A DNA stretch of 64,000 nucleotides from Shigella phage vB_SdyM_006: the sequence record MK295204; one strand, written 5' to 3'. Made by a program: the position numbers and the translations under genes. Below the pieces are notes generated by a model that was not told where the DNA came from, did no database searches, and saw nothing but the letters and a program-made list of their open reading frames with translations. Below, in pieces: positions 2,670-59,412 of the stretch. The stretch's first letter is position 1; each line of letters starts with the position of its first letter.

Positions 2670-3233
2670 TTAGAAAAAATCATCTAATGTAAACTCTTTA
2701 TATCCTATCATTTCTTTGAATTCGCACATCACTATTGGGTTATATAAATTATAAGTCTTTATCCCTAAATAACGTGCTAGATAAACAGCTGTTCTTGTCC
2801 CTCCAGAAACATTCCCATATTTATCCTCAGGTGCCCAAAATATAACTGAATCAACAGGATTTTCTAAAGTAGGTGTTAATATTTGCATACAATTTCTACA
2901 TTGAAGATGTTTAACAGTTTTAGAAACACTGTCTAATTTAGGATAAAATCTTCTTATAATATTAGCGGCTTTTTCTTGGATTTCGTCATTAAAGTCTGTA
3001 AATATATGAACACCATTCCCAGAATAGTGATTATTGAACCCCTGGTGAGGAATAATAACACATTTATTTTCAGATGAGTATTTCTTCATAAACAAATAAT
3101 CACTCCCAGGCGCTCCTCCTGATGTTCCTAGCACTCCTAAATTAGAAATATATTCTCCACCACTTATTAAAATATTAGATAAACGACTTGGTATTTTTCT
3201 TGACCCTATTAAAGCTACAGAATTTTTAACCAT
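2670..3233 (-). CDS. DprA/Smf-like SLOG (Rossmann-fold) protein
   Basis: Motifs IGSR, TSGGAPGSD and SGGTRTA resemble DprA/LOG-type nucleotide-binding fold; ATG with GAGGT RBS; a terminator hairpin sits immediately upstream. Confidence 0.5.
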   Translation of the reverse strand: MVKNSVALIGSRKIPSRLSNILISGGEYISNLGVLGTSGGAPGSDYLFMKKYSSENKCVIIPHQGFNNHYSGNGVHIFTDFNDEIQEKAANIIRRFYPKLDSVSKTVKHLQCRNCMQILTPTLENPVDSVIFWAPEDKYGNVSGGTRTAVYLARYLGIKTYNLYNPIVMCEFKEMIGYKEFTLDDFF

Positions 3234-20281: not shown

Positions 20282-22345
20282 TTAAATAATAAATTTTTCT
20301 GGGACAAAAGTAAGATCAACAGCTGTTGATAATAATTCTAGCCCTTTTTGACTAATTTTACCAGTATTTTCTTTTAAGAATTCTTTAAACCCAATTTTTT
20401 CGATTTTTCCTTCAGATAAAAACTTATTTCCGTCAATAAGTTCGCTTTCATCTAGTAATTCTGGATCCACTACAGATGTTTCTACTAATATTGGTCTATT
20501 AAATTCTATATCACGAGCGTTTTCATAACCGTGGATAGAATGAATCTTAAGAGCTAAACCTCTAGGTAAAATCACCTCGCATTCACTAGAGTATTTTGAC
20601 ATATTACCAGGAATAATAACATTGACTTTATGTGCACCTTTAATAGTTATACCCATAGAAATGTTAATATCTGTTTTCTTAGTTGCTTTCTTACCATTAA
20701 CGGCTACACCAATATTTTTTGGTGTCATAACTGTTGATATAACATCATCGAATGTTTCGGATTCAAAAGTTACTGTAGTCGCGTTAGGTTTAATATTATC
20801 AAGAACATCATTTCGTTCCCCAAAAATAATTGGAGCTAATGAAGTCGAAATATAATTAGGAAAATATAATGTTTTATTTTTAGCAGCTTTTTCTACGTCG
20901 GCATAAGGTAATTTTTGTGCTCTATATAAAATAGTTCCTTTTTCTAACTTGGTTCCTTTTTTGAAGGCCCCATCTAAGACAGGAATTTTGTTTTCATACA
21001 CAGATTTTAAACTTTTATCTTTACCAAGCAAAAAGTCGTTCATTTCTTCATATCCACGTAAAGCATAATCTGTGATAACTTTTCGCTCTTCTTCTGTTAA
21101 ATCCATTTCTGTTTCGGTTCTAAATAACTCTTCTAAAGGAGTATAGAAAACATTTCTGTTTAAAGCAGAGATACAGCCTCTTAAAGCTCTAGTCTTAGCC
21201 ACATTATCGTCAGGTCCATATGTTTCTAAATCTTCGGCTATTTTTTTGTAAACATCCATAGCATTATTAGAAGTTTTGAGCGCATTGTTAATTATCAATA
21301 TATACGGTTTTGCTAATTTATATTTTTCTTCACTAGATAAATGATAAAAATTTTCAACACCATACCCAGATATGCGTTCTAAAGAATCTAATAAAAATCT
21401 AGCTTCTAGATCTGATTCTTCTTCACTCACGGCCGAATTTATTTTATCTAAAAACACAGATTTAGATTCATCAATTTTATTAAGGACATTTTTATGAACT
21501 AATGCAATTTTTGTAGAATCACTTTGGACAATAGGAGGATTATCTTGTAGTTCAATATATTTTCTTCTTCCTTCTTCAGAATAATTTTCTAAGTCTTCTG
21601 GTTTAGAAACACCATACATTGCTGATAATAATTCACGTCTAGAAACTTTAGTTTTTGAAATGACAGATCGTTCACTTCTTGTGTTTTCTTGTGCTGCAAT
21701 ACTTCCTGCAATGGCTTCTAATTTAGACACTTGCTTGCCAGTTTTGTCATTGATATACACATCACCTACTTTAGAATCGACTTTAGTATATAAGTCAGAA
21801 TCAATACCAGGAATCCCAGCGATGTCTTCTAAAGGTCTGTTTTTACGATATATTAAAACATAAGCATGTTTACCTGTAAATTGATACAAATCTTCTAAGA
21901 CAACAAATTTACCACCAGTACGTTGCATAGCCAGACGTTTGATTATTCTTTGTAATGTCTTTTCTTGGCCTTTCATTTTTTTAGCAGGGAATCTAAATAA
22001 AACTGCGTCCATTTTAAGTTTTTTAACTTGTTCGTATACAGTGTCAAAAATAGTATTCAATGCCCCAATAGGGTCTGAGCCTAAACCATTTCTTAATTCT
22101 GCTGCATTACCATTTTTAGACAAACTCATCAAAAACACTTGAACAAATTTATCACCTTGCTTTACTGCTTTTAATGCATCGCCTTTAGATAAATAAGACA
22201 CCATTCTAACTAAAAGATTGTCATTTCCAGGAACACTGACATTCCATAATTGAGGGACCTTAGCCCTTTTATTAAGATTAATAGCTTTATATTGAGCTAT
22301 TTCTGAATCAAAAACCTCATTTAAATTAATTTCATTTAATTCCAT
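20282..22345 (-). CDS. alt: ADP-ribosyltransferase Alt
   Basis: 687 aa (T4 Alt 682 aa); R-S-E type motifs YRAQ, YISTS, ECEVILPRG; late promoter upstream. Confidence 0.85.
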   Translation of the reverse strand: MELNEINLNEVFDSEIAQYKAINLNKRAKVPQLWNVSVPGNDNLLVRMVSYLSKGDALKAVKQGDKFVQVFLMSLSKNGNAAELRNGLGSDPIGALNTIFDTVYEQVKKLKMDAVLFRFPAKKMKGQEKTLQRIIKRLAMQRTGGKFVVLEDLYQFTGKHAYVLIYRKNRPLEDIAGIPGIDSDLYTKVDSKVGDVYINDKTGKQVSKLEAIAGSIAAQENTRSERSVISKTKVSRRELLSAMYGVSKPEDLENYSEEGRRKYIELQDNPPIVQSDSTKIALVHKNVLNKIDESKSVFLDKINSAVSEEESDLEARFLLDSLERISGYGVENFYHLSSEEKYKLAKPYILIINNALKTSNNAMDVYKKIAEDLETYGPDDNVAKTRALRGCISALNRNVFYTPLEELFRTETEMDLTEEERKVITDYALRGYEEMNDFLLGKDKSLKSVYENKIPVLDGAFKKGTKLEKGTILYRAQKLPYADVEKAAKNKTLYFPNYISTSLAPIIFGERNDVLDNIKPNATTVTFESETFDDVISTVMTPKNIGVAVNGKKATKKTDINISMGITIKGAHKVNVIIPGNMSKYSSECEVILPRGLALKIHSIHGYENARDIEFNRPILVETSVVDPELLDESELIDGNKFLSEGKIEKIGFKEFLKENTGKISQKGLELLSTAVDLTFVPEKFII

Positions 22346-23249: not shown

Positions 23250-24651
23250 GACGTCTCATTTTAACACGTGGTAAAAATAAACTATATGTTTCTCGTCCAT
23301 CAACTTTTTGAGCTGCATTACATACACCCGAGATAATCATACCGACAAGTTTACCTTTCTTATGAAGATCCCATAATAAACGACGGTCTAATTCATGACG
23401 TTTATCGAGTGGAATCCAGATTTTTTCTTTTGAACCTTTTACCTTTTCGTAATCTTTATCCTTAAAACCAGAACCACAGTCAACTAAAATAGTCCCATCT
23501 CTAGACCTTAAATTGACACCACCTAATTTTTCAGGGTCTTTAGAATGTGGATACGCACCAATAATTTCTAAATCAAAATCTTTTTCTTCTTTAAATTTTA
23601 CTTGGTCACAAGTACGTCCATCAGACCAAACACCAAGTTTATTTTTTAGAATAATACCTTCTAACTTCATATCAACATATTTTCTGTAAATAACTTGGGC
23701 TTCTTCTAAAGTCTTAACTTCTTCTGATGGAATTAATTCTAAACGTCCTGCTTTTTTAGTAATTAATTCTAAATTTTTTAACCTTTCTTTGTAAGGTTTA
23801 TTAATTTCTGAATTATCAGTCTGTGTACCTTGTGTAACTTCATAGTTAATTAGATCCCAGACCTGGAATTTAACACAATCTGCTTCGGTTTTTGAAATGG
23901 TTCCTTGGATTGATTTATTTGCAATACCGTTACCTTCTTCTCTAGAAGCAACAATATTTTCTTCTTCGTCTTCATCAAAGAATAAATCTAGACCTTGTTT
24001 TGTTGATTTAGGAAAATAAACTAGTTCACCATCAAGAACAACGTTTCCTAATCCTTCAGTGATAGATACAATTTCTTCTTTTAGCAAATCTAGACCAAGA
24101 TATTCGCTACCAGAACGAGAATATAAATTAACTTCCCCGTCTACAACTTCGGCAAAACATCTAGCACCATCTGCTTTAAGCTGAGCTAATGCTGGGAATT
24201 TAATTTTAGATACATTAGCTTTACTAAAAGGCGCTGCTAAAAACTGCGGCTGCTTTGGTAATAAATTTTCCCATACTTTGTTTGGAATACTTCTTCCTAC
24301 ACCACATTCCAAGTCACGTTTGACAATGCGTTTAATTAATGCTGCATCTTTAGGGCATAAACTTTCTAATACATCTTTTAAAGCAGCAATTGCAGCATGT
24401 CCTGTTAAAACCCGTTCACCTAAAACATTTTCTAAAAAATCTAAAGCGTCACGAAGTGTTTTAGATTCGGTTTTAGGTTCATATTCTGGAATCTTTTTAA
24501 TATGGAATTTGACTCTTTGAGAATATGTTAATCTAAACACATCTTTTACTAATAAATTGTTTTTATATTTTAAAAGAATATTTTCTTTTTCTTTTAATGA
24601 ATCCGTAGAAGCTAGTTCTACAATAATATCGTATACCATACCTTTTTCCAT
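23179..24651 (-). CDS. 30: ATP-dependent DNA ligase gp30
   Basis: Active-site KADGAR (KxDG) and long co-linearity with T4 DNA ligase; start may be second ATG (24639). Confidence 0.9.
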   Translation of the reverse strand: MEKGMVYDIIVELASTDSLKEKENILLKYKNNLLVKDVFRLTYSQRVKFHIKKIPEYEPKTESKTLRDALDFLENVLGERVLTGHAAIAALKDVLESLCPKDAALIKRIVKRDLECGVGRSIPNKVWENLLPKQPQFLAAPFSKANVSKIKFPALAQLKADGARCFAEVVDGEVNLYSRSGSEYLGLDLLKEEIVSITEGLGNVVLDGELVYFPKSTKQGLDLFFDEDEEENIVASREEGNGIANKSIQGTISKTEADCVKFQVWDLINYEVTQGTQTDNSEINKPYKERLKNLELITKKAGRLELIPSEEVKTLEEAQVIYRKYVDMKLEGIILKNKLGVWSDGRTCDQVKFKEEKDFDLEIIGAYPHSKDPEKLGGVNLRSRDGTILVDCGSGFKDKDYEKVKGSKEKIWIPLDKRHELDRRLLWDLHKKGKLVGMIISGVCNAAQKVDGRETYSLFLPRVKMRRLDKQEANDFYEIFGQSPEEYFNR

Positions 24652-24660
24652 TTATAGTCC

Positions 24661-25296
24661 TTATTTTATACTATTTAATGATTCTTCTAAGTCTGGTAAA
24701 ATGGATTCAAAATCATACCAGTCTTTAACATTGATAATAGGACAATCTGGCAAATCACGTTGTCCACGTGGCATATGAATCAAAGGTAGTCTCGAAATAA
24801 CTTTATGACAATCTTCAAGATTATGAGCCAAATCATCAACAAAACATAAAAGATTTTTAGTGTGTTTAACTTTAACATCTAAATAATGAGGAGTTTTAGA
24901 TTCACCATAATTCACAAGTAAAATATCACTAAATGCATTAGGAAATAAAGAATTCAAATTATATAACCGATTAAACAATGCCTGGTTAGTAGTTCCTAAA
25001 GCTGTGATAGCAACAAATTCATACTTATGTTTAAGCCTATTAATGACTTCAATGGCATCAGTATATCCAGTTAGATACTTAATATATTTTGAGTTATTGT
25101 ATTCCGTCATTAATTTTAAGCCAAGTTCTTCATTACAACGGAACATTTCGCCTGGCGACATAAAAACATTTTCTGTGATAACTCTTAAAATATTTGATGT
25201 ATCAATACCATAATCTTGTGCAAAATAAGGAAGTCCAGATGCCCACTGGACTAAAATGCCATCAACGTCAGTTAAAATAACAGGTTTTACTTGCAT
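24661..25296 (-). CDS. HAD-like phosphatase-fold protein
   Basis: N-terminal LTDVDGIL resembles HAD motif I. Confidence 0.45.
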   Translation of the reverse strand: MQVKPVILTDVDGILVQWASGLPYFAQDYGIDTSNILRVITENVFMSPGEMFRCNEELGLKLMTEYNNSKYIKYLTGYTDAIEVINRLKHKYEFVAITALGTTNQALFNRLYNLNSLFPNAFSDILLVNYGESKTPHYLDVKVKHTKNLLCFVDDLAHNLEDCHKVISRLPLIHMPRGQRDLPDCPIINVKDWYDFESILPDLEESLNSIK

Positions 25297-25739
25297 TATG
25301 CATCCTCATATTTAATTGCCATAAGAGCCTTTTTAGTGAATTCGTAGATGTCAATATTTTTAACACCTTGGCTTAAAATAGATTCCACTGTTTTATCAAG
25401 AACTGGCTTAATAAAAGGTCCTTGAAGATTCATTGTTCCAGTTCTATCTTTAAATGCGATAACGAATTTACGATCGACCCAATTATTTTTGGGTTCAAGA
25501 TTTTCTATTTTTTCAAAATAACCATGTTCATCAACGTCAATAATAAACGCTACTGTAAAATCGTCTTCGGTTAAAGTTTCGTCACCACATTTAAGTTTTT
25601 TGACATGTCCACTTTCGTCAAGTTCAATAACTTTAAATGGGCTATTTGAGATAGCATTAGCAATACGTTCATTAGAATAATTTTCATCAACAAATCCGTC
25701 AATGTCAATTAATTTATACCAACCATTTAATTCAAACAT
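25296..25739 (-). CDS. hypothetical protein, tandem paralog (147 aa)
   Basis: SNSPFKVIELDESG resembles GKNPFKVLALGPGN of next gene. Confidence 0.5.
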   Translation of the reverse strand: MFELNGWYKLIDIDGFVDENYSNERIANAISNSPFKVIELDESGHVKKLKCGDETLTEDDFTVAFIIDVDEHGYFEKIENLEPKNNWVDRKFVIAFKDRTGTMNLQGPFIKPVLDKTVESILSQGVKNIDIYEFTKKALMAIKYEDA

Positions 25740-25746
25740 AGTATTC

Positions 25747-26199
25747 TCACTTAAAAGTAATAGATTGGGTGATTTCAGCAGTTTTATCTAAAGTATACAT
25801 TTCAACTTTACCAGTAGGATTTTTTGTTAAAAATGCTTCGATACTTTTATGTGCTGATTCTTCATCTAGAGGAACTGAAGAAGTTTCTACACCGTTTAAA
25901 ATTTGGACTAAAACTACACGGGCTGACGGGACTACAACTTCATTAAAATACTCCACTTCATATTTAGAAATCACCACTGTTAATTGAGAGTCAAAATCAG
26001 AAGGTGTGTATTCTTTTCCGTTAATTGAAATTAAAACAACATCACGATTGCCAGGCCCAAGAGCTAAAACTTTAAAAGGATTTTTCCCAATAAGGTTATA
26101 AATTTTTTCATTATATGCCGAGTACTCTTTAAACTCGTGTTCATTGATAAGTTGATAAGATTTACCGATTTCAAATTCAAAAGCTGTTTTAGTTTTCAT
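25747..26199 (-). CDS. hypothetical protein, tandem paralog (150 aa)
   Basis: See previous feature. Confidence 0.5.
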   Translation of the reverse strand: MKTKTAFEFEIGKSYQLINEHEFKEYSAYNEKIYNLIGKNPFKVLALGPGNRDVVLISINGKEYTPSDFDSQLTVVISKYEVEYFNEVVVPSARVVLVQILNGVETSSVPLDEESAHKSIEAFLTKNPTGKVEMYTLDKTAEITQSITFK

Positions 26200-26200
26200 A

Positions 26201-26521
26201 TTAGGACCTTATTTTTAAGATTGTTTTCATTGCAGCAACTAATGGTTTTTTATCCTCAACCCAGTCATCACAACATAAATTTTCATTATCGAAATTATTG
26301 TATCTAGAACCTAGACAATGTAAACCGATAAATGTATCATTTGATGTTTTTGTTACACTGATATCATGGTCTAACATTAAGACCCAAGCTTGATTAATAT
26401 TATTACATGGATCAAATTTTAAGCCATTAATATAAACAAATAACTTAAACCCTTGGTTTTCTACTGTGTATTCATACCCAAGACTTTTAGCTAGTTCAAT
26501 ATTAATATCAAGTTCAGTCAT
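26201..26521 (-). CDS. hypothetical protein (106 aa)
   Basis: ORF. Confidence 0.5.
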   Translation of the reverse strand: MTELDINIELAKSLGYEYTVENQGFKLFVYINGLKFDPCNNINQAWVLMLDHDISVTKTSNDTFIGLHCLGSRYNNFDNENLCCDDWVEDKKPLVAAMKTILKIRS

Positions 26522-26955
26522 AACCGTCTCCTTAAAGATGTCAATATACCACAGAATTCTTGGTTTGTTAATATAGTTTCGAACTTATTTTCGCATCCTA
26601 TAGTATGAACTAATGTTTTATCGCCTGTTGCTCTCAGAGCATCTCTGAATGATTTATTCTGATTAAACATATGAATATATGCTCTGACTAGTAAACGTTT
26701 GTAGGCTTCACTGTGACGATTAATAGGGCATCCATTATACCACATAGTGTCATTTTTCATTTTAGGACCAGCTAATTTGGCCTTTAATCCATGCAGTTTA
26801 AACACTTCAGATTGTTCTTTAGGGTCTTTAATTTTTAATCCTTGTAAAAATCCTTCTATACTGCCAAAGAGCTGATTGTCCATTTTAAAAGGATGCTCAG
26901 CAAAATTACTTAAAGCACATGAAGGCCAAGGGCCTCTAGAATGAATATCAATCAT
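26518..26955 (-). CDS. NADAR (YbiA-like) domain protein
   Basis: LSNF..PF, S.E.F.Q..K and MFNQN..FRDALRATGDKTLVH align with E. coli YbiA motifs FSNF..P, TSEHYFQAQKF and KFEQH..LRALLLATAPAKLVEH. Confidence 0.7.
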   Translation of the reverse strand: MIDIHSRGPWPSCALSNFAEHPFKMDNQLFGSIEGFLQGLKIKDPKEQSEVFKLHGLKAKLAGPKMKNDTMWYNGCPINRHSEAYKRLLVRAYIHMFNQNKSFRDALRATGDKTLVHTIGCENKFETILTNQEFCGILTSLRRRL

Positions 26956-26968
26956 ATATCCTCTAAAC

Positions 26969-26992
26969 CAAAAAAGGAGACCGGAGTCTCCT
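26969..26992 (-). terminator. intrinsic terminator (tetraloop family)
   Basis: Minus strand AGGAGAC-TCCG-GTCTCCT then TTTTTT. Confidence 0.55.
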
Positions 26993-26999
26993 TAATCAT

Positions 27000-27236
27000 T
27001 TATAGTGTCACCAAATCCAAGATACGCTCTATTTGGTCAATAATTGCTTTGCCAGAGTCATTATCGTAAACAAACTTTGTTAATGCTATATTTCTTATAG
27101 TAGTTGTTTTTGCTAATTCTTTAAGATCGTTATTAAAGAAATAAAGTGCGTCGGCTTCATTGTCGAAATACTTATTATAAACCTTTTTTTCTTTAACAAT
27201 TCTGTATACTAAATTATATTGAGTTGATGTTGACAT
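27000..27236 (-). CDS. hypothetical protein (78 aa)
   Basis: ATG with GGAGG RBS; early promoter upstream. Confidence 0.5.
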   Translation of the reverse strand: MSTSTQYNLVYRIVKEKKVYNKYFDNEADALYFFNNDLKELAKTTTIRNIALTKFVYDNDSGKAIIDQIERILDLVTL

Positions 27237-27264
27237 TTTAGACCTCCGTTATTAATTGTGATCT

Positions 27265-27294
27265 ATAATATCCTTTTTTAAAAGAGAAGTAAAC
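27265..27294 (-). promoter_or_regulatory. T4-type early promoter
   Basis: Minus strand GTTTAC, 18 nt, TATTAT, immediately after terminator. Confidence 0.5.
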
Positions 27295-27313
27295 ACTTAT
27301 TTTCAATAAAACC

Positions 27314-27336
27314 AAAAAAGGAGACCGAAGTCTCCT
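27314..27336 (-). terminator. intrinsic terminator (UUCG tetraloop family)
   Basis: Same hairpin as 22388..22410. Confidence 0.6.
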
Positions 27337-27342
27337 TAAATT

Positions 27343-27474
27343 TATTTCTTGTTTCCTAAATTAGCTAAAAACTTAGCTCGCCCATTTTCTTGTCGTTTAA
27401 CAAATCCAACCAGTTTGTCTAGGTCTTGGTTAATACGTTTATTTGTTTTTCGTTTGTAACCTTTACGTGCGGAC
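27343..27474 (-). CDS. small basic protein (43 aa), not in ORF track
   Basis: ATG at 27474; translation MSARKGYKRKTNKRINQDLDKLVGFVKRQENGRAKFLANLGNKK. Confidence 0.3.
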
Positions 27475-27485
27475 ATAGTAATTCC

Positions 27486-27731
27486 TTATTTCAATGTAAC
27501 AATATAATGACGAACAGCTTTACGTGCATTAGAACTTAAATGCTTAGCATATTTTAAATTATCATTTTCGATAAGCTCTTGGTGAAGATTTTTTTGTTCT
27601 GGATTTAAGTGTTTAAAACCTTCAAGAACTTTAAGTGCTTCAGCCAGAACATCGATTGATGCACCATAGTTTTCATGGCCATTTTGGAAAGAATTACGTT
27701 GGATATCTAAAATTGTTTTTACAAAAGTCAT
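27486..27731 (-). CDS. hypothetical protein at the rIII position
   Basis: 81 aa directly downstream of gp31 in transcription order (T4 rIII 82 aa); synteny only. Confidence 0.4.
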   Translation of the reverse strand: MTFVKTILDIQRNSFQNGHENYGASIDVLAEALKVLEGFKHLNPEQKNLHQELIENDNLKYAKHLSSNARKAVRHYIVTLK

Positions 27732-27804
27732 AGATGCCTCAAAAATGCGAGGTTAATATTTAGTGGTCATAATGACCACCGGTTTAGAACACATGTTCAT
27801 ATAG

Positions 27805-28122
27805 TTATTTATACACTGCTGCAATAGATTTATAATGAGCAGTAATAAATTTTATTGGGAATTCACTAGCTTTTTTATCATTAAAAACAGTTTCTGGATG
27901 AGGAACATTACGCATGTTACCTGTAGGTAAAGGGACCTTATCACCGATCTCAAAATAACCTTGAGGAACACAATCACCAATGGCATAAATTTCACCATAT
28001 TGTGGTAATTCACCTTGTTGACGAACACCAATAACAATACCTGAAGCCGAAACTTCTTCGGTCCCAGCTGATTCTGCTTTTGCTGCTATAATAACGCTTT
28101 CACCTAATGCTTTAATATCCAT
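27805..28122 (-). CDS. 31: co-chaperonin gp31 (GroES-like)
   Basis: 105 aa; RNVPHP and C-terminal HYK resemble T4 gp31. Confidence 0.8.
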   Translation of the reverse strand: MDIKALGESVIIAAKAESAGTEEVSASGIVIGVRQQGELPQYGEIYAIGDCVPQGYFEIGDKVPLPTGNMRNVPHPETVFNDKKASEFPIKFITAHYKSIAAVYK

Positions 28123-28451
28123 TAAACCAACCTTAAAATGTCTTCATACTTCATAGAATTAACAGAAATAATTGATTCTGTTGTAATAGAACGCCATGCA
28201 TTAATCTCTGTATCAAATACTCGGATATATGATGGTGTTTTTGTTTCTTTTTCTGTTAAAGGTTTAGAACTATCTTGTTTAGGATGATGTTCTTCAGGAA
28301 TAATATCATAATCTAGTGTACAGCGAATAACTCTAATAGAACCATCTTTTTTAGTAAAAACAATTTCATTTTTACCATTATGTAGTAAGGTTTTAATTAA
28401 AGCAGTTAATTTAGCTTTTCTTTCTTCTGTAAGTTTCATTTTACACCACAA
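28122..28451 (-). CDS. hypothetical protein (109 aa)
   Basis: ORF between cd and gene 31. Confidence 0.45.
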   Translation of the reverse strand: MWCKMKLTEERKAKLTALIKTLLHNGKNEIVFTKKDGSIRVIRCTLDYDIIPEEHHPKQDSSKPLTEKETKTPSYIRVFDTEINAWRSITTESIISVNSMKYEDILRLV

Positions 28452-28987
28452 TAGTTAGTTATAGTAGACCAATCAATATGATTGAGATTAGAACGCTCAT
28501 ATTTAATAACTTCAATTCCAGAATCTAATAAAATCTGGTCCCATCCAGGAACATTGCGATCATATGTTTCTGCATAAACAAGTTTTTTAATACCAGATTG
28601 AGCAATCGCTTTAGCACAATCAGGACATGGCGATAATGTTACATACATTGTTCCGCCATCAATAGAAATACCATTACGAGCAGCAAAAATAATTGCATTT
28701 AATTCTGCATGGATTTCATGTTTAGAAGACCATGCATTATGTTGCTCACGGAATTCCATATTTAATCCTGTAATAGTTTTAGGACGAGGACCTGGAACAA
28801 TAATAGGTTTAGTCCAACCTTTTTCTGCTGCATGGTCGCAGCAATTGACGCCACCAGTAGGAGAACCATTATAACCAGTAGAAATGATTCTTCCACCTTT
28901 TTCAATAACAGCACCAACTTTCCAAGAAACACATTTAGATTCTTGAGAAATGATATAAGCAAGTTGGAGATATGTCGAAGCTTTCAT
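28436..28987 (-). CDS. cd: dCMP deaminase
   Basis: Zinc-binding deaminase motifs HAELNAI and PCPDCA. Confidence 0.9.
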   Translation of the reverse strand: MKASTYLQLAYIISQESKCVSWKVGAVIEKGGRIISTGYNGSPTGGVNCCDHAAEKGWTKPIIVPGPRPKTITGLNMEFREQHNAWSSKHEIHAELNAIIFAARNGISIDGGTMYVTLSPCPDCAKAIAQSGIKKLVYAETYDRNVPGWDQILLDSGIEVIKYERSNLNHIDWSTITNYCGVK

Positions 28988-29273
28988 TAGAACGATCCTC
29001 TATGTATTCTAAACATTTAGACGGAGTTTGAACCTGTACATCATAAGTATGGCTCTCATAATTGAATTCTGCTTTAACAACATATTTTAAAGCATGTTCT
29101 GGGTCCATTAATTGAATTAATGTATGGATTGTTGATTTCAAATTTAATTGAAGTTTCCAATCGCATATCTCAAATAAATTATTTTTATGCCATTGTTCAA
29201 TATACAAACGAAGAAACTCATCCAAATTTTCTGGAGATGCATGATTTAATTCTTTTACAACTTTAATACTCAT
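28935..29273 (-). CDS. hypothetical protein (112 aa)
   Basis: ORF. Confidence 0.45.
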   Translation of the reverse strand: MSIKVVKELNHASPENLDEFLRLYIEQWHKNNLFEICDWKLQLNLKSTIHTLIQLMDPEHALKYVVKAEFNYESHTYDVQVQTPSKCLEYIEDRSNESFDISPTCLYHFSRI

Positions 29274-29275
29274 TA

Positions 29276-29614
29276 TTATTCCTTAAGCATATACATATAA
29301 ACTAAATAGGTTGTGTTTCTAGTTTTTACAATAGCTACTCTATCATCTAACATTTTAAAGCTCTTTACAGTAGATGTACTAACATAAGTTTCATCTTTAA
29401 ATCGATTAGAAATATCACTGTAAATAAGTCCAGAAATACCAAATCTGGCTTCTAAATTAACTTCAAGAATATGCTCTAATTTATCAGACATTCGATGTCC
29501 GATAACAGCTAGAATAGCATCGCATGCACAAGCATTTCGAATAGAAGATAATTCAGATTCTTGGTTTTGCCCTATTTTATCTTCAATTGCGTTAATCAAT
29601 TTTTCTGTTTTCAT
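29276..29614 (-). CDS. hypothetical protein (112 aa)
   Basis: ORF directly downstream of DAHP synthase gene. Confidence 0.5.
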   Translation of the reverse strand: MKTEKLINAIEDKIGQNQESELSSIRNACACDAILAVIGHRMSDKLEHILEVNLEARFGISGLIYSDISNRFKDETYVSTSTVKSFKMLDDRVAIVKTRNTTYLVYMYMLKE

Positions 29615-30585
29615 TATAAGTCCACAATTAATTGTGCAGTGTCAAAGATATCAATACAAGGATCTGTAATTGATACACCCCATAAAAGATTATCGGAAAT
29701 CTTTTGATTACCTTCTATTAAATTACTTTCAATCATAAGCCCAAAAGTATTTTTAGCTTTAATTGCTTCTTTAGCTACATTAATTTGGTTTTTAAAATTA
29801 CCTTCACAATTAGCGTGTGAGCAGTCAACCATAACTGGAATCTCTAAAGACTCAATATATTCTTTAGAATAATTAGTTTTATATTCTTTACCGATTTTAC
29901 CACCACGTAAAATAATATGCGTATTTAGATTTCCACTTGCATAGATTTTACTAATCACGCCATCCATATTAATACCTAAATACGAATGTGGAAAAGCTGA
30001 ACTCTTCATAGCATCTAATGCTACTTGAATATCACCTGATGTTGAATTTTTAAATCCAACGGCCATAGGCAGCCCAGAAGCTATTTCACGATGAGTCTGT
30101 GATTCTGTTGTTCTAGCGCCGATAGCAGTCCAACTAAAAATACCAGATAGATACTTAATAGTAAATGGGTCTAAGACCTCTGTCGCCAAAGGAAGCCCAA
30201 GATTCAATAGTTCTATGCATAAGTGACGAGCAATTCTTAACCCTTCATCCATGTTAAACGAACCATTTAATTCAGGGTCATTAACAAGTCCTTTCCAACC
30301 TACGGTTGTACGTGGCTTTTCAAAATAGACCCGCATTACTAAAAGACATTTATCACCAATATGGTTTTGTAATCTTTTTAAATACTGCCCGTAAATGACC
30401 GCTTGTGCTGGGTCATGAATAGAACAAGGCCCAACAACGATCAGTTTTTTAGAACTCACGCCAGAAATAATATCTTTAACTTCTTGGCGATGATTTTCCA
30501 CTTGTTGCTTTAATTCATCAGAAATTGGCAACTCATCATGTAGCTCTTGTGGTGTGCTAATAGTTTTAACGTGCATGGATATCAT
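29614..30585 (-). CDS. DAHP synthase (type I alpha, AroG-like)
   Basis: LIVVGPCSIHD, MRVYFEKPRTTVGWKGLVNDP, IGARTTESQTHREIASGL match E. coli AroG nearly residue for residue; ATG with GAGG RBS. Confidence 0.85.
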   Translation of the reverse strand: MISMHVKTISTPQELHDELPISDELKQQVENHRQEVKDIISGVSSKKLIVVGPCSIHDPAQAVIYGQYLKRLQNHIGDKCLLVMRVYFEKPRTTVGWKGLVNDPELNGSFNMDEGLRIARHLCIELLNLGLPLATEVLDPFTIKYLSGIFSWTAIGARTTESQTHREIASGLPMAVGFKNSTSGDIQVALDAMKSSAFPHSYLGINMDGVISKIYASGNLNTHIILRGGKIGKEYKTNYSKEYIESLEIPVMVDCSHANCEGNFKNQINVAKEAIKAKNTFGLMIESNLIEGNQKISDNLLWGVSITDPCIDIFDTAQLIVDL

Positions 30586-33607: not shown

Positions 33608-33963
33608 TTCGTTTCCTCTACAACACTATCAGTGAACTTTTTAAACGAATTATTAATAAGTTTAGACACTAGTCCAGGTTTAGATTCAACGATATGTTCA
33701 CGAGCTGCATCTTTTTTTAGTTTATAAGTTATGCTATTGGTTTCCGTCTGAATAGAACTAAACTTATCGTTTAAAGCGTTGTATTGCTTTATTTGATTAT
33801 TAAGTTTTTCTTTATAATCATCAAATTCTGTATTAAGCTTTTGTAGTGCTTTTTCTGTTTGATCTAGTTTTGTTGCATTTTCTGTGTATAAATGGAATAA
33901 TACCCCATTACTCAAAATAAGAACAAGACCAATAACTAAATAAATTTTTGTGTTCATTGACAC
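33604..33963 (-). CDS. inner-membrane spanin (i-spanin)
   Basis: N-terminal TM helix IYLVIGLVLILSNGVLF then coiled-coil-like periplasmic domain. Confidence 0.65.
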   Translation of the reverse strand: MSMNTKIYLVIGLVLILSNGVLFHLYTENATKLDQTEKALQKLNTEFDDYKEKLNNQIKQYNALNDKFSSIQTETNSITYKLKKDAAREHIVESKPGLVSKLINNSFKKFTDSVVEETK

Positions 33964-34454
33964 ACCTTAAAAATTGTGTTAATGATGTCGTCAGAAGATA
34001 ATCCTCTGAATAGAATATGATTTCTTGATGTTGAAGAACTACAGGAAAAAGAAGGGATTAAAGAAGCCATATCATCGTATGTTAGTTCTTTATGCATAAT
34101 ACCAAGTTGGTGTTTTTCATAAATCGGGTCAACGATAATATAGCATTTATGGCCATTGATATGAACATTAGGCTGTGAAATATTAATAAAGACCTCTGCA
34201 TCAGTGTTAGCTAAATAACTTTCTAAAAATGACTTCATTTCTTGAACAGCTTCAGGTAATTTTTCGCGTCGTTCTTCAGAAACACGATTATTATATTCTT
34301 TTTGTTTGAGTGATTTAGATTTATTACGACCTAAAGCTGCTCTTAAATCAGACAAATAGCCTACGCGTTTAGAGCCTTTCCAAACAGATAACCCATCATG
34401 ACGGTCTCCAAAAGAAGCCACTACCATATCATTTGTAATTAGTTGTAAATCCAT
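33954..34454 (-). CDS. hypothetical protein at the alc position
   Basis: 166 aa (T4 Alc 167 aa) between rnlA and spanins; synteny and size only. Confidence 0.4.
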   Translation of the reverse strand: MDLQLITNDMVVASFGDRHDGLSVWKGSKRVGYLSDLRAALGRNKSKSLKQKEYNNRVSEERREKLPEAVQEMKSFLESYLANTDAEVFINISQPNVHINGHKCYIIVDPIYEKHQLGIMHKELTYDDMASLIPSFSCSSSTSRNHILFRGLSSDDIINTIFKVCQ

Positions 34455-37237: not shown

Positions 37238-37377
37238 TTTAATCCTTAATTTTTCTTTTTACAAGGGTCCCATCTTTTACTGCTTTGTCATAAGCAATTT
37301 TAATTAATCGTAGACGTTCCACTTTAGAATTTCTAATTTTGTTAAAATCTATCTCGGACGAATCCGAGATAGTTGTA

Positions 37378-39618: not shown

Positions 39619-39629
39619 TTTATTCCTTT

Positions 39630-40196
39630 CTAGATATAATATTGATCTATTTTTCTAATATGGCTTTTAATAAACGAACTTAATATGGATGACAATTTTA
39701 TAGAATTTTCTACATTGTAACACCCCATAATCTTTTTATCACAAGATGCTAAAGAAAACATATAAACAGGTTCTTTGTTTTCATCATTTAAATAATTAAC
39801 AATAGATACAGCAGAAGAAAAATGGTTATTGTTTTTATCATCTGTTAAAAAATCTTTGATACATATTTCTGTCTTAGATTCTGCATGGTATTTCCAACTA
39901 TCTAGATATTTCACAAGTTTATTAAGCTTAGTTTTATAATGGGATAAAATTTTATCTGCACATATTTTATTAGGGGTTTTACCGTATGAATAAAAACTTG
40001 GTGTGTGTAAAATAATATGTCTAGTCCCGAAATTAAATCCTATAGATGCCACTAAATTTATAGGTCTATTTTTATTTCTTATCTTTTTGTATTCTAAAGA
40101 AACAGATTCTGATAAAACAATCCATTCGGATTCGTTAATTTCATAAAAAGCATTATTTGATATTTCTGTGGAAATATCAGTTTTATTAATATACAT
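39630..40196 (-). CDS. hypothetical protein (about 188 aa)
   Basis: Track start is TTG at 40241; ATG at 40196 avoids overlap with upstream gene. Confidence 0.45.
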   Translation of the reverse strand: MYINKTDISTEISNNAFYEINESEWIVLSESVSLEYKKIRNKNRPINLVASIGFNFGTRHIILHTPSFYSYGKTPNKICADKILSHYKTKLNKLVKYLDSWKYHAESKTEICIKDFLTDDKNNNHFSSAVSIVNYLNDENKEPVYMFSLASCDKKIMGCYNVENSIKLSSILSSFIKSHIRKIDQYYI

Positions 40197-40203
40197 AAAA
40201 GTC

Positions 40204-40488
40204 TCACAAATATATTTTATCATTAAACAGTTTATTAACAACTTCGGCTATTATATCACCATGGCATGGCTTAGGATAACATGTGCAACCAAGTCTAGAG
40301 CCTCTTAAAACTTCAAGATGATGTTTATTTATTTCGCCAGTTTTTATTTTATTAAGAAAATATGGGATAAACCTTTTGATGTTTTCTTCTCTAGTTCCAT
40401 CTTTAAAAGGATTACCCCACATTGTCCCTCTTTGAATATTAATATCAAAGTCAGAGTTATATTTATTAACGACTCTACAATGTTTCAT
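40204..40488 (-). CDS. DUF4326-like small protein
   Basis: WGNPF near N-terminus and LGCTCYPKPCHGDI near C-terminus fit the DUF4326 pattern as recalled. Confidence 0.5.
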   Translation of the reverse strand: MKHCRVVNKYNSDFDINIQRGTMWGNPFKDGTREENIKRFIPYFLNKIKTGEINKHHLEVLRGSRLGCTCYPKPCHGDIIAEVVNKLFNDKIYL

Positions 40489-41005: not shown

Positions 41006-41857
41006 CTATACACTGAAAGGGTATTTAATAGCAGGGTGATATTGATAATCTTGTACTTCAAAATCATCTACAGTGACCCAGGTTTCAATATCTTCTAATG
41101 ATCTGATATTATCATTAATAATAAGTTTAGGTGCATTAAACGGCGTCCTAGACACATGCTCTGGGACTAAAGATAATTGGTCTTCATAGATATGGGCATT
41201 TGTTATCTTATGAAACACTTTACCAGGTTTATTTGCTGTAATCTGGGCCATTAAATGTAAAAGCACATAACACTGAATCATATTAAAATTTAAACCTAAT
41301 GGGACATCACATGATCTTTGGTATGAAGTTAAATATAAAGTCCCATTAACGAGAGAAAAATTATGGGTATGCATACAAGGACGTAAACAACCTAAGTCAA
41401 ATTCTCCTGGATTCCAGAACGTTAGGATTTCTCCACGATCATCAGTTCCTTCACTTAAATTATCATAGATTTTTCTGAGTTGGTCAATAGTGCTATTAGG
41501 TCCTTGCCATTGTCGTCCTTGAACACCATAAACACGGCCCATATCGTCTTCACCTTTGCGATGAGGGTTATTTAGCCATGCTTGATTTTCATTAGCGTTT
41601 GCATTCCATGTATTACAACCAATTTCACGAAATTGCGCTGCATTGTCGTAACCACGAAGATATCCTAACAGTTCAGCAATAGCAGCTTTATAAAAGCTTT
41701 TACGAGTTGTATCAATTGGGAATTCAGAATATTCTAGGTCGGCATTAATAATAACACGACAAAATTTTCCAGTTCGTTTATTATATACGTCTTGGCCTTC
41801 ATTATAAATCTTTTTTAATAATTGTTGATACTGATTCTTTTCTAAGATCTTTTCCAT
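41006..41857 (-). CDS. td: thymidylate synthase family protein, uninterrupted
   Basis: [29 protein letters not shown] align with ThyA; active-site region reads LRPCMH not the usual PCH; position between frd and nrdA. Confidence 0.8.
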
Positions 41858-53030: not shown

Positions 53031-55123
53031 TGGCAAAAATTCCAAGAATACAATTTAAAAGAACTAAAACACCAGGAACAAAGCCTTCAAAAGATATTTT
53101 AGCTGAAGGTGAATTAGCAATTAACTTAGCTGATAGAACTCTTTTTACAAAATCCGGAGATGATATTATTGATCTTGGCTTTGCTAAAGGCGGCACAGTT
53201 AATGGAGATATTAATCAAGAAGCTGGAAATTTTACAACCAATGGGTCAATGACTGCTAAAACATACATTGATATAAAAAATAGCTTAAATGACAAAAAAA
53301 TATTTAGGCTTTCTTATGAAGGAGATCGTGGCGCTTTATTGTCTGTTAATGAAGGCGACAATAAATGGAAAACTATACTTGTTCCATTAGACGAAGATGG
53401 GACTAAAACTATAGCTACTCGTGAACACGTAGGAAAAATGGTTTCTACTAATGATGGAGAAACCAAATTAAGGGCTCCAAACCAGACTAACTTATTGATT
53501 GCAAAAGACAATAAAGAACTTGTTTGGTACGATGGATCCACTAATAATAGAATGGTTAATTTTGGTGCAGGTGGTTTAGATTTAGCCCACAAAGGTAGTG
53601 ATATTGTCGGAGTTAGTTTATACAAAAAAGATGGCAATCAGGTTCGAATAGAAACCCATGCCCATTCATCGGCCCTTATGTTAGCTTTTGCATATAAAGA
53701 TTCTGCAGGAAATAATTCATATGTAATCAATATGCCAAAAGAAAATGGTATATTAGCTACACAAGGATGGACAGATGCCAAATACTATAAAAGGAATGAC
53801 AGCCCATCGTTCAAAGAATACGTTAATGTTTTTCATAATACCACAGGGTCTTATACTCAATTAGGATATGGTAATGCAGGTGCTACATGGTCAGTTAACA
53901 CAGGCGGCAATTGGTATATATTAAAACATCCCCTAGCTAATGGTACAGTTGCTTCTCAAGAATGGAGTCAAGCTACGCATTACAATAAATCAGAATCTGA
54001 TAATAGATATGTTAAAATTGGTATAGGTGGTGGTTACCCACTACATAATTATAATGCAGGTGGCCATGGCTATTCTACTTGGAATGAAAAAGGTGTACGT
54101 CAAGCTTATATAGGATTCGCAAATGATGGTTCTACAGAATTTACCATTAGTAACGAAAAAGGATCTAATAGTACTATTAACCTTAAAGCGGGTAATGTTT
54201 TAGTTAATGGTGTAACTATCGCCTCTCAAAACTGGGTAATTTCTAATTTTTATAAAAAAACAGAAACATATAATAAATCTGAAATTGATGGCAAAGTTAA
54301 TGGACGATTAACACAGGCCCAAGGTGATGCTAGATATTATACTAAAACCGATTCTGACGGTCGTTACTTACGAATGAATATCACCAACAAAACTAGTATG
54401 CCGGTATTCTATAGAACAGCAAACTATGGAGATGATGCAAACCAACGTGATTTAAATTACGCAGGATTTTATAGAACTAACGGATTAAACAGCTTACCGA
54501 GTCTCATAATTCATGTTCCTCATAGTAGTGGGCTAGCTCATGGAAGAGGTATAGGATTTGACTACGGTTCAGCCGGATATGGGATTTATACTTATGCATA
54601 TGATGCGAATGGAAAATATCAAGGTCAAAAATCTATCGCATTGAGCGAGTATCACTATTCAAAAACTGTATCAGATGATAGATATTACCAGAAGTCTCAA
54701 ACATATTCTAGAGCAGAAGTTGATTCTAGAGTAAACGGAAGATTAACTCAAGCCACGGCGGATGGAAGATACGCGTATAAAGGTGGTGCTAATGCTCAAA
54801 ACTTTGGTGCTAACATAGTTGATGCTGCTGACGTTAATATTCGTTCAGATTTAACTGTAAAATCAAATTTAGTTAAAATAAATAATGCTATACAAACTGT
54901 TAAAACATTAACAGGGTATACATATGATTTAAAATTAAACGATAATACATATAAACAATCTGCAGGTATAATAGCACAAGATGTACAAAAAGTTCTACCA
55001 GCATTAGTTACAGAGGACTCTTTAGGATTATTATCTGTTAATTATAATGGTTTAACTGCAGTTCTTGTTAATGCTATAAATGAATTATCTGAAAGATTAG
55101 AAAGATTAGAACGAGGTGTATAA
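53030..55123 (+). CDS. 37: long tail fibre distal subunit gp37 with C-terminal intramolecular chaperone domain
   Basis: N-terminus IQFKR.K..GT.P....LAEGELAINL.DRT.FTK matches T4 gp37; C-terminus has SDLTVKSNLVKI and GIIAQDVQKVLPALV pattern. Confidence 0.85.
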   Translation: MAKIPRIQFKRTKTPGTKPSKDILAEGELAINLADRTLFTKSGDDIIDLGFAKGGTVNGDINQEAGNFTTNGSMTAKTYIDIKNSLNDKKIFRLSYEGDRGALLSVNEGDNKWKTILVPLDEDGTKTIATREHVGKMVSTNDGETKLRAPNQTNLLIAKDNKELVWYDGSTNNRMVNFGAGGLDLAHKGSDIVGVSLYKKDGNQVRIETHAHSSALMLAFAYKDSAGNNSYVINMPKENGILATQGWTDAKYYKRNDSPSFKEYVNVFHNTTGSYTQLGYGNAGATWSVNTGGNWYILKHPLANGTVASQEWSQATHYNKSESDNRYVKIGIGGGYPLHNYNAGGHGYSTWNEKGVRQAYIGFANDGSTEFTISNEKGSNSTINLKAGNVLVNGVTIASQNWVISNFYKKTETYNKSEIDGKVNGRLTQAQGDARYYTKTDSDGRYLRMNITNKTSMPVFYRTANYGDDANQRDLNYAGFYRTNGLNSLPSLIIHVPHSSGLAHGRGIGFDYGSAGYGIYTYAYDANGKYQGQKSIALSEYHYSKTVSDDRYYQKSQTYSRAEVDSRVNGRLTQATADGRYAYKGGANAQNFGANIVDAADVNIRSDLTVKSNLVKINNAIQTVKTLTGYTYDLKLNDNTYKQSAGIIAQDVQKVLPALVTEDSLGLLSVNYNGLTAVLVNAINELSERLERLERGV

Positions 55124-58974: not shown

Positions 58975-59412
58975 TTAATAACTGATTTTTAATCTATCAC
59001 AAATTTCTTTTAGATGATTAATTCTATGTTCAGGTAGATTTTTGTCTAAAATAACTAAACCATATTCATCAGGATGATAATCACCTAAGAATTTGATTTG
59101 ATGGTTTATTATAGCAAACTGGTTGATATTAGCATCAAATCTATCAATAGTTTCTTTTAAACCACTTTTAGCAACTAAAATGTCATTATTGTCTCTTTTA
59201 AATAATGTAATCCATTTATCTACAAAAGACTTATCTTCATGTGCTTTTTCTGTATAACCTTTAGACATCATTAATTTACGAAACCTTTCCATATTTAATG
59301 GACGCACCCAATAATCAATATCTCTTGGTGGTGTTTTGTAATAATAATCTCTAGCGGTCCCGCCAATGATATGATAATTAATATTATTATCACTTAATAT
59401 TTTAGAAATCAT
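58975..59412 (-). CDS. minimal nucleotidyltransferase-fold protein (CCA-adding/poly(A) polymerase head-domain-like)
   Basis: 145 aa; HIIGGTARDYYYKTPPRDIDYWV fits GG.RD...D.D signature of Pol-beta superfamily class II head domain. Confidence 0.5.
   Translation of the reverse strand: MISKILSDNNINYHIIGGTARDYYYKTPPRDIDYWVRPLNMERFRKLMMSKGYTEKAHEDKSFVDKWITLFKRDNNDILVAKSGLKETIDRFDANINQFAIINHQIKFLGDYHPDEYGLVILDKNLPEHRINHLKEICDRLKISY

Follow-up and report, generated by a model that had tools for sequence, protein, structure and literature searches.

The minus-strand open reading frame at positions 26518..26955 of the window (by which we mean the whole stretch of 64,000 nucleotides of Shigella phage vB_SdyM_006, record MK295204, that was analysed here) is, judging by its sequence and its place among neighbouring genes, the Bragavirus ortholog of gene 30.3 of phage T4, now named adfN. 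We consider it probable that this Bragavirus gene specifies a minimal NADAR protein, reduced to the core of the domain and belonging to the early genes, which removes from phage DNA the ADP-ribose that DarT1 toxins attach to guanine. The frame opens with an ATG and encodes 145 amino acids, the product being a single-domain phage NADAR and a predicted guanine-ADP-ribose DNA glycohydrolase. Direct reading of the sequence places a Shine-Dalgarno core, GAGG (26960..26963, minus strand), 4 nucleotides ahead of the ATG at 26955. It is a real gene on which purifying selection is acting, dN/dS being 0.10 in the comparison with phiP4-3 and 0.12 in that with PM2, whose counterpart keeps the catalytic triplet and has a shorter annotated N-terminus. 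The gene itself is no discovery, as the family, the fold, the catalytic residues, the activity and the anti-DarTG1 role of AdfN were already published in 2023-2024. The practical gain is one of annotation: the gene is called a hypothetical protein in SJ_PmiM and phiP4-3, and again in PM2, where the record adds the note "gp30.3 conserved hypothetical protein", so that in each Proteus phage record consulted the label "hypothetical protein" can give way to adfN, or phage NADAR.

Comparison with protein profiles places the product in a family of its own within the NADAR proteins. Pfam PF08010 ("Phage_30_3", Bacteriophage protein GP30.3) matches residues 10-142 along positions 2-137 of the 138 in the model, scoring 145.4 bits (E 1.2e-42) where 36 would suffice, and on this basis Phage_30_3 is its close family. 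The preliminary description, made from the letters only, had aligned the protein motif for motif with YbiA of E. coli and had named the generic NADAR profile PF08719 as the one that it should match. All of the motifs in common with YbiA are present (L15-S-N-F18, P22-F23, S32.E34.F36.Q38..K41 and F97.QN..FR.AL.ATGD..LVH117), and the alignment is borne out by HMMER, which pairs residues 15-117 with YbiA (PDB 2b3w) at an E of 0.006, the single difference of note being the final LVH, which reads LVE in YbiA. The PF08719 profile is recognized over residues 11-118 with an E of 9.6e-6, but its score of 26.4 bits stays under the gathering cut-off of 35.1, and the resemblance to YbiA is for this reason real but distant. 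PHROG 652, a group that carries no function label, matches with an E of 6e-46. The family is a large one, tblastn with the adfN protein finding matches in 1506 phage records, most of them T4-like phages of Escherichia, Klebsiella, Shigella, Aeromonas, Acinetobacter and Vibrio with some further ones from phages of Caulobacter, Sinorhizobium and Rhizobium, while HMMER, run exhaustively over the representatives of 1.84 billion clusters, gave 1102 clusters at E ≤ 1e-3. Elsewhere in the deep search the Phage_30_3 domain occurs as tandem repeats (P0003, P0006) and in fusions with BspA-type leucine-rich repeats, a GDSL lipase, a cupin and an alpha/beta hydrolase (P0117, P0031, P0046, P0065), architectures that the available portions of the AdfN papers do not discuss.

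Whether the 30.x cluster of T4 holds a homolog had been left as a question in the preliminary description, and the answer is gene 30.3 itself. BLASTP aligns the two proteins from residue 2 to the last residue with 46% identity (E 3e-42), and the match is reciprocal and unique, the single match in T4 being 30.3 and T4 gp30.3 having in turn a single match in the window; T4 gp30.3 also finds one match in the approximately 97% of phiP4-3 that was searched. Gene order agrees with the sequence comparison, as T4 and the Bragavirus lineage have in common a block composed of alt, lig (30), 30.2, 30.3, a 30.9-like gene, rIII, 31 and cd.

The residues on which catalysis depends in NADAR proteins can be followed in this alignment. 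Schuller et al. 2023 established that NADARs hydrolyse the guanine-N2-ADP-ribose made by DarT1, and from the structure of a Phytophthora NADAR·ADPr complex and mutants of DarG1 of E. coli C7 three catalytic positions were defined: Glu (E43/E88), Lys (K50/K95) and a further, acidic one, which is occupied by Glu in proteins of the YbiA type and by Asp in DarG1 but by His in the NADARs of phages (PMC11543638). This His in the last strand, replacing the Glu of YbiA and the Asp of DarG1, appears in three reports as the signature of phage NADARs (PMC11125620, PMC11543638, PMC12945103). In the protein studied here E34 and K41 align with E36 and K43 of T4, and H117 aligns with H123 of T4 and with E125 of YbiA. 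Conservation was counted on an alignment of 52 single-domain homologs, in which N17, H117, T130 and L138 are invariant, E34, Q38, K41, R80 and Y85 are conserved in at least 90% of the sequences, and the C-terminal R142 is conserved as are T130 and L138. The AlphaFold2 model built on the same 52-homolog alignment (pLDDT 97.9, pTM 0.92) predicts the alpha+beta fold of NADAR proteins; searched against the PDB with Foldseek it gives credible matches only with YbiA (E 1.9e-5) and with 8bau, the Phytophthora NADAR in complex with ADPr, and a profile search of PDB sequences returned YbiA only (E 4e-4).

Knowledge of what such a protein does in a phage infection comes from the T-even phages. Johannesman, Carlson and LeRoux mapped the resistance of these phages to DarTG1 to gene 30.3, which was renamed adfN in 2024 (PMC11257639, also PMC11825919). 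Deletion of adfN from T4 and T2 causes a 4-log plating defect on DarTG1, which speaks for necessity, and adfN rescues RB69, whose own allele is frameshifted and has lost its last 15 residues, which speaks for sufficiency; the T4 substitutions E36A and K43A give inactive proteins with loss of counter-defence, and purified T4 AdfN strips ADP-ribose from DNA. According to the same source the protein is ineffective against DarTG2 and properly effective only during Tevenvirinae infection, a restriction that the authors credit to hydroxymethylcytosine DNA (PMC11257639). The adfN protein of the window reaches the end of T4 AdfN, with a modelled C-terminal helix at residues 131-144 (pLDDT about 97), and thus carries no truncation of the RB69 type. 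Independently, T4 gp30.3 was described in a Toxins 2024 paper as hydrolysing G-ADPr DNA in vitro and as giving E. coli no protection from DarT1 outside infection (PMC11125620); the construct is given there as "residues 1-208" and T4 30.3 encodes 152 amino acids, a mismatch that is immaterial in view of the independent assay of the LeRoux laboratory. The T4 NADAR removes guanosine-ADPr and is absent from the NADARs listed for cytidine-ADPr removal (Toxins 2026, PMC12945103). The occurrence of NADARs in T4-like phages, among early genes and alongside ADP-ribosyltransferases, had been catalogued earlier by Iyer et al. 2022 (PMC9503650), and the preprint of the EVADES anti-defence compendium makes no mention of AdfN or NADAR. 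The suggestion of the preliminary description that a protein with this fold would undo guanine ADP-ribosylation as a counter-defence has hence found its demonstration, both of activity and of role, in the T4 ortholog (PMC11257639, PMC11125620).

By analogy with T4 and T2, we infer the same activity and anti-DarTG1 role for the Bragavirus protein. In such a scenario a DarT1-type toxin of the host would ADP-ribosylate the N2 of guanine in phage DNA and block its replication; the adfN enzyme would bind the ADP-ribose, with K41 contacting the pyrophosphate and E34 and H117 flanking the distal ribose, and would cut the N-glycosidic bond between ribose and guanine, restoring unmodified DNA and allowing replication to proceed. 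The identity of 46% to T4 AdfN leaves room for a shift in substrate, and the specificity of AdfN in vivo is itself incompletely understood, as T4 AdfN fails to protect uninfected E. coli from DarT1.

The enzyme is probably made early in infection, and the sequences around the gene allow its expression to be outlined. Immediately upstream of adfN is a 78-amino acid frame (27000..27236, minus strand; phrog_21205), annotated as a hypothetical protein in phiP4-3, which is probably co-transcribed with adfN. On the other side lies a frame of 106 amino acids (26201..26521, minus strand; phrog_444, with weak similarity to NinX), and its ATG overlaps the adfN stop codon in the sequence ATGA, which suggests translational coupling. 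A hairpin with a stable tetraloop and a terminator-like appearance, AAGGAGAC-TCCG-GTCTCCTT followed by TTTTTT (26974..26993, minus strand), abuts the ribosome-binding site of adfN, and a near-identical one, AAGGAGAC-TTCG-GTCTCCTT, is found at 27318..27337 (minus strand). These two hairpins, each with an 8-bp stem and together described by AAGGAGAC-T[T/C]CG-GTCTCCTT followed by TTTTTTGG, bracket the 78-amino acid frame. A scan for terminators gave 8 sites in 1.8 kb when 0.6 were expected, and the TTCG and TCCG loops resemble those of the C(UUCG)G hairpins described between genes of T4. The nearest upstream promoter-like site able to drive both the 78-amino acid frame and adfN, TTTACT-17 nt-TATTAT (27265..27293, minus strand), resembles sigma-70 and T4 early promoters; it is a candidate from a consensus scan only, and as promoter-like sites were not enriched over shuffled sequences it amounts to weak evidence. 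As the stretch from the hairpin at 26974..26993 to the start codon is too short for a promoter, adfN would be transcribed by read-through of this hairpin, the source of which is likely to be either the candidate at 27265..27293 or a promoter further upstream.

The 106-amino acid frame is absent from T4 and PM2, and PM2 carries a different frame, of 163 amino acids, upstream of its own 30.3, so that the surroundings of the gene are a variable spot. Three small minus-strand frames missing in T4 (25296..25739, 25747..26199 and 26201..26521) lie between the 30.2-like gene and adfN, the first two of which encode 147 and 150 amino acids, match both phrog_3710 and phrog_622, weakly resemble goF in its N-terminal part and appear from their sequences to be tandem paralogs. 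A partner at the operon level was not found among the five flanking frames, for which Pfam and PHROGs offer only "unknown function".

As AdfN of T4 seems to be fitted to DNA with modified cytosine, markers of such DNA were sought in the lineage of the phage. Over bases 24000-30000 the window shares 98.9% identity with Proteus phage SJ_PmiM, 98.5% with Proteus phage phiP4-3 and about 86% with PM2 and Pm5461. These four phages belong to the genus Bragavirus of the Straboviridae, a lineage of T4-like myoviruses whose taxonomy line puts it outside the subfamily Tevenvirinae. Compared with phiP4-3, the window differs at 37239..37377, 41319..41324, 39628..40203 and 53966..54700; it is without two mobile insertions of that phage, one of about 1.05 kb in td (where the annotation of phiP4-3 has an I-TevI homing endonuclease separating two fragments of td) and a 630-bp homing-endonuclease gene between nrdA and nrdB, and it differs also at a frame of 203 amino acids (39630..40241) and over roughly 730 bp of the distal long-tail-fibre gene. 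The window encodes Alc (33954..34454), a protein that in T4 blocks the transcription of cytosine-containing DNA, while the annotation of phiP4-3 has endonucleases II and IV, and the same phage encodes a homolog of the gp56 dCTPase (56% identity) and a gp42-like protein of the thymidylate-synthase family with 25% identity to T4 gp42. Given this set of markers, modification of cytosine is likely in the Bragavirus lineage, which does not necessarily mean glucosyl-hmC. Searches of phiP4-3 covering about 97% of the genome (minus the last 4.3 kb) found no homolog of AdfA/gp61.2, the anti-DarTG1 factor known besides AdfN, and none of the β-glucosyltransferase, and because a glucosyltransferase of the T4 type is missing and the gp42-like enzyme is only 25% identical, the modification may differ from that of T4. 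AdfN would be the only known anti-DarTG1 factor of this lineage. The marker set matches the kind of DNA on which AdfN of T4 performs best (PMC11257639). The window also encodes at 29614..30585 (minus strand) an enzyme of the DAHP-synthase family (PF00793, E 7e-66), and the interval between polymerase and uvsX in phiP4-3 (L007 25410..32887) holds genes for a SIS domain protein, an NTP-transferase/kinase fusion, a P-loop kinase, a U32 peptidase, a chorismate-mutase-like domain and the gp42-like, thymidylate-synthase-like protein. Taken together, these genes might serve the making of a sugar or the hypermodification of DNA, or else be an auxiliary set for the aromatic pathway.

It may be, though we regard it as unlikely, that Bragavirus AdfN acts on a DNA chemistry or a toxin different from that of T4 AdfN; room for this reading is given by the missing AdfA and T4-type glucosyltransferase, the distant gp42-like protein, the unusual sugar and nucleotide genes and the fact that DarT1 is undocumented in Proteus. 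If it were true, the protein would offer a natural test of whether the restriction of AdfN to certain infections depends on hydroxymethylcytosine DNA or, alternatively, would hint that Morganellaceae have a defence by guanine ADP-ribosylation that has so far escaped recognition.

The toxin was looked for on the host side with the darT1-darG1 sequence of E. coli C7, recovered via a published primer. A tblastn search for DarT1 in 72,556 plasmids, which is an insensitive check, gave 31 hits with none in Proteus, and a scan of species-representative genomes by exact peptide words, a likewise insensitive method, gave only 4 distant loci with none in Morganellaceae; the literature on darT-darG yielded only rare and untyped darT-darG, in Morganella. 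As these searches are insensitive, the lack of a DarT1 hit in Proteus is a gap rather than counter-evidence. Since DarT1 is undocumented in Proteus and the activity of the protein is predicted only, we keep a minor share of our expectation, to us doubtful but worth weighing, for substrates other than DarT1-modified phage DNA, namely guanosine-ADPr in RNA, the products of other guanine ADP-ribosyltransferases and soluble ADP-ribose derivatives taken together.

The least improbable of these, though we give it only a small chance, is that the enzyme acts on guanine ADP-ribosylation that does not come from DarT1, be it guanosine-ADPr in RNA, the work of a YarT-, ScARP- or pierisin-like host enzyme or off-target products of Alt or Mod. 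Every NADAR family tested, that of T4 included, removes guanosine-ADPr from RNA (PMC12945103), NADARs of T4-like phages are found among early genes together with ADP-ribosyltransferases (PMC9503650), and the plasmid, genome and literature searches just described turned up no DarT1 in Proteus, although these are searches of low sensitivity. In T4, the adfN deletion has no reported phenotype beyond sensitivity to DarTG1 (PMC11257639). Alt, announced by the preliminary description as the writer, is encoded in the window by a frame of 687 amino acids (20282..22345) in which PF03496 marks an ADP-ribosyltransferase domain (E 1.4e-15), and alt lies 4 kb from adfN in a common early-gene block. Against Alt as the source of the substrate, its target is arginine in proteins, and to our knowledge NADARs do not cleave the arginine linkage. 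Also in the early region, near motA, is a nucleotidyltransferase-like protein of 145 amino acids (58975..59412, minus strand; phrog_1614, E 3e-31), with weak Pfam matches to NTP_transf_5 and the PolyA_pol head.

Somewhat more improbable still is that the main substrates of the adfN enzyme are soluble derivatives of ADP-ribose (cyclic or linear ADPr immune signals, for instance, or by-products of RNA repair), on which it would work in concert with DUF4326, SLOG and Nudix proteins rather than on DNA adducts. This was what comparative genomics predicted for phage NADARs before the experiments (PMC9503650), the co-occurrence of DUF4326, SLOG and Nudix with NADAR exceeds chance, and the window has DUF4326 and SLOG/DprA-like proteins while phiP4-3 has a Nudix hydrolase. 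On the other hand, ADP-ribosylated DNA is a substrate of the T4 ortholog in vitro, and deletion of this ortholog gives a 4-log defect specific to DarTG1 (PMC11257639, PMC11125620), and the NADAR, DUF4326 and SLOG genes of the window stand 13-24 kb apart, neither adjacent nor fused. The preliminary description had counted the DUF4326-like protein and a macro protein as further erasers of ADP-ribose. The DUF4326 protein is there (40204..40488; PF14216, E 2.3e-19), encoded on the minus strand near nrdA and 94 amino acids long, but it is probably no eraser of ADP-ribose, as the only published prediction makes DUF4326 a rhodanese-type phosphatase acting on ribose-linked phosphates or breakdown products of ADP-ribose (PMC9503650). 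Of PHROG 464, a profile of 322 positions, it covers no more than the C-terminal third, which indicates that many relatives are fusions. No macro domain was found among the frames scanned, 68 of them as concatenated pseudo-proteins (at a cost in sensitivity of about 5 bits) and 10 individually at E ≤ 0.5, with 30 frames of clear structural or replication annotation left out. The macro protein of the preliminary description may instead be the SLOG/DprA-like protein of 187 amino acids at 2670..3233 (minus strand; phrog_768, E 9e-57; Pfam DNA_processg_A, E 0.003), SLOG being a domain of the ADPr network with a proposed role in phages as processor or sensor of ADP-ribose derivatives.

Hardly credible, and rejected here, is an N-glycosidase of the YbiA type working on intermediates of the riboflavin pathway for metabolic damage control, for despite weak matches to YbiA itself and to the profile of such enzymes, TIGR02464 (E 4e-6), the latter reaches 27.1 bits where 73.7 are required, the Glu that defines YbiA is replaced by an invariant His (H117, 52 of 52 homologs) and there are no riboflavin genes near adfN.

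Returning to the removal of DarT1-made ADP-ribose from guanine, a Bragavirus adfN with this function would be of use in two ways. In phage therapy against Proteus the presence of adfN, read from the sequence, would predict that a phage resists defences of the DarTG1 type. Moreover, an ortholog from outside Tevenvirinae, accompanied by apparently different DNA-modification genes, could help to tell apart the two accounts published for the context dependence of AdfN, a preference for modified DNA and a need for a T-even cofactor.

Comparison with the known NADAR systems sets the protein apart from all of them except T4 AdfN. YbiA of E. coli (PDB 2b3w) is 21-25% identical to it, works as an N-glycosidase of riboflavin intermediates, is found in the context of a host SOS operon and has the Glu that defines its family, whereas the adfN protein has His and scores below the cut-offs of both PF08719 and TIGR02464. 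DarG1 (E. coli C7 and Geobacter lovleyi; PDB 8bat) has about 220-230 amino acids, 229 in C7, and an N-terminal extension of a beta-sheet and a helix that is thought to bind ssDNA, whereas the adfN protein consists of the 145-amino acid core only and is without this extension. DarG1 has Asp where the adfN protein has His, and it adjoins darT1, while the neighbours of adfN are small phage frames without DarT; further, DarG1 neutralises DarT1 in uninfected cells and T4 AdfN does not. The alignment by hhalign of the 52-sequence family profile with DarG1 of E. coli C7 gave no significant similarity (E 0.29), and this value, together with the sub-threshold score of PF08719, makes the relation to DarG1 one of fold. 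The orphan NADARs of phages Bas32 and Bas60 (T5-like and Vequintavirinae), which have anti-DarTG1 activity and were independently acquired, belong to other clades, neutralise DarT1 even when there is no infection and rescue phages whose DNA is unmodified (PMC11257639); the adfN protein, unlike them, is of the AdfN clade. From T4 AdfN it differs in coming from the Bragavirus lineage of Proteus phages, which lacks AdfA and a glucosyltransferase of the T4 type and has a gp42-like enzyme of only 25% identity, in an N-terminus shorter by 2 residues, in having no loop insert of 4 residues after position 65, in the missing internal 30.3' frame and in the 3 extra frames between it and 30.2. With T4 AdfN it nevertheless has in common a homology over the full length with 46% identity, a place in the early-gene block between ligase and rIII, a size of about 150 amino acids with nothing but the core, the Glu/Lys pair, the clade-specific His, an intact C-terminal helix, the company of markers for cytosine-modified DNA and a T4-like myovirus as its carrier.
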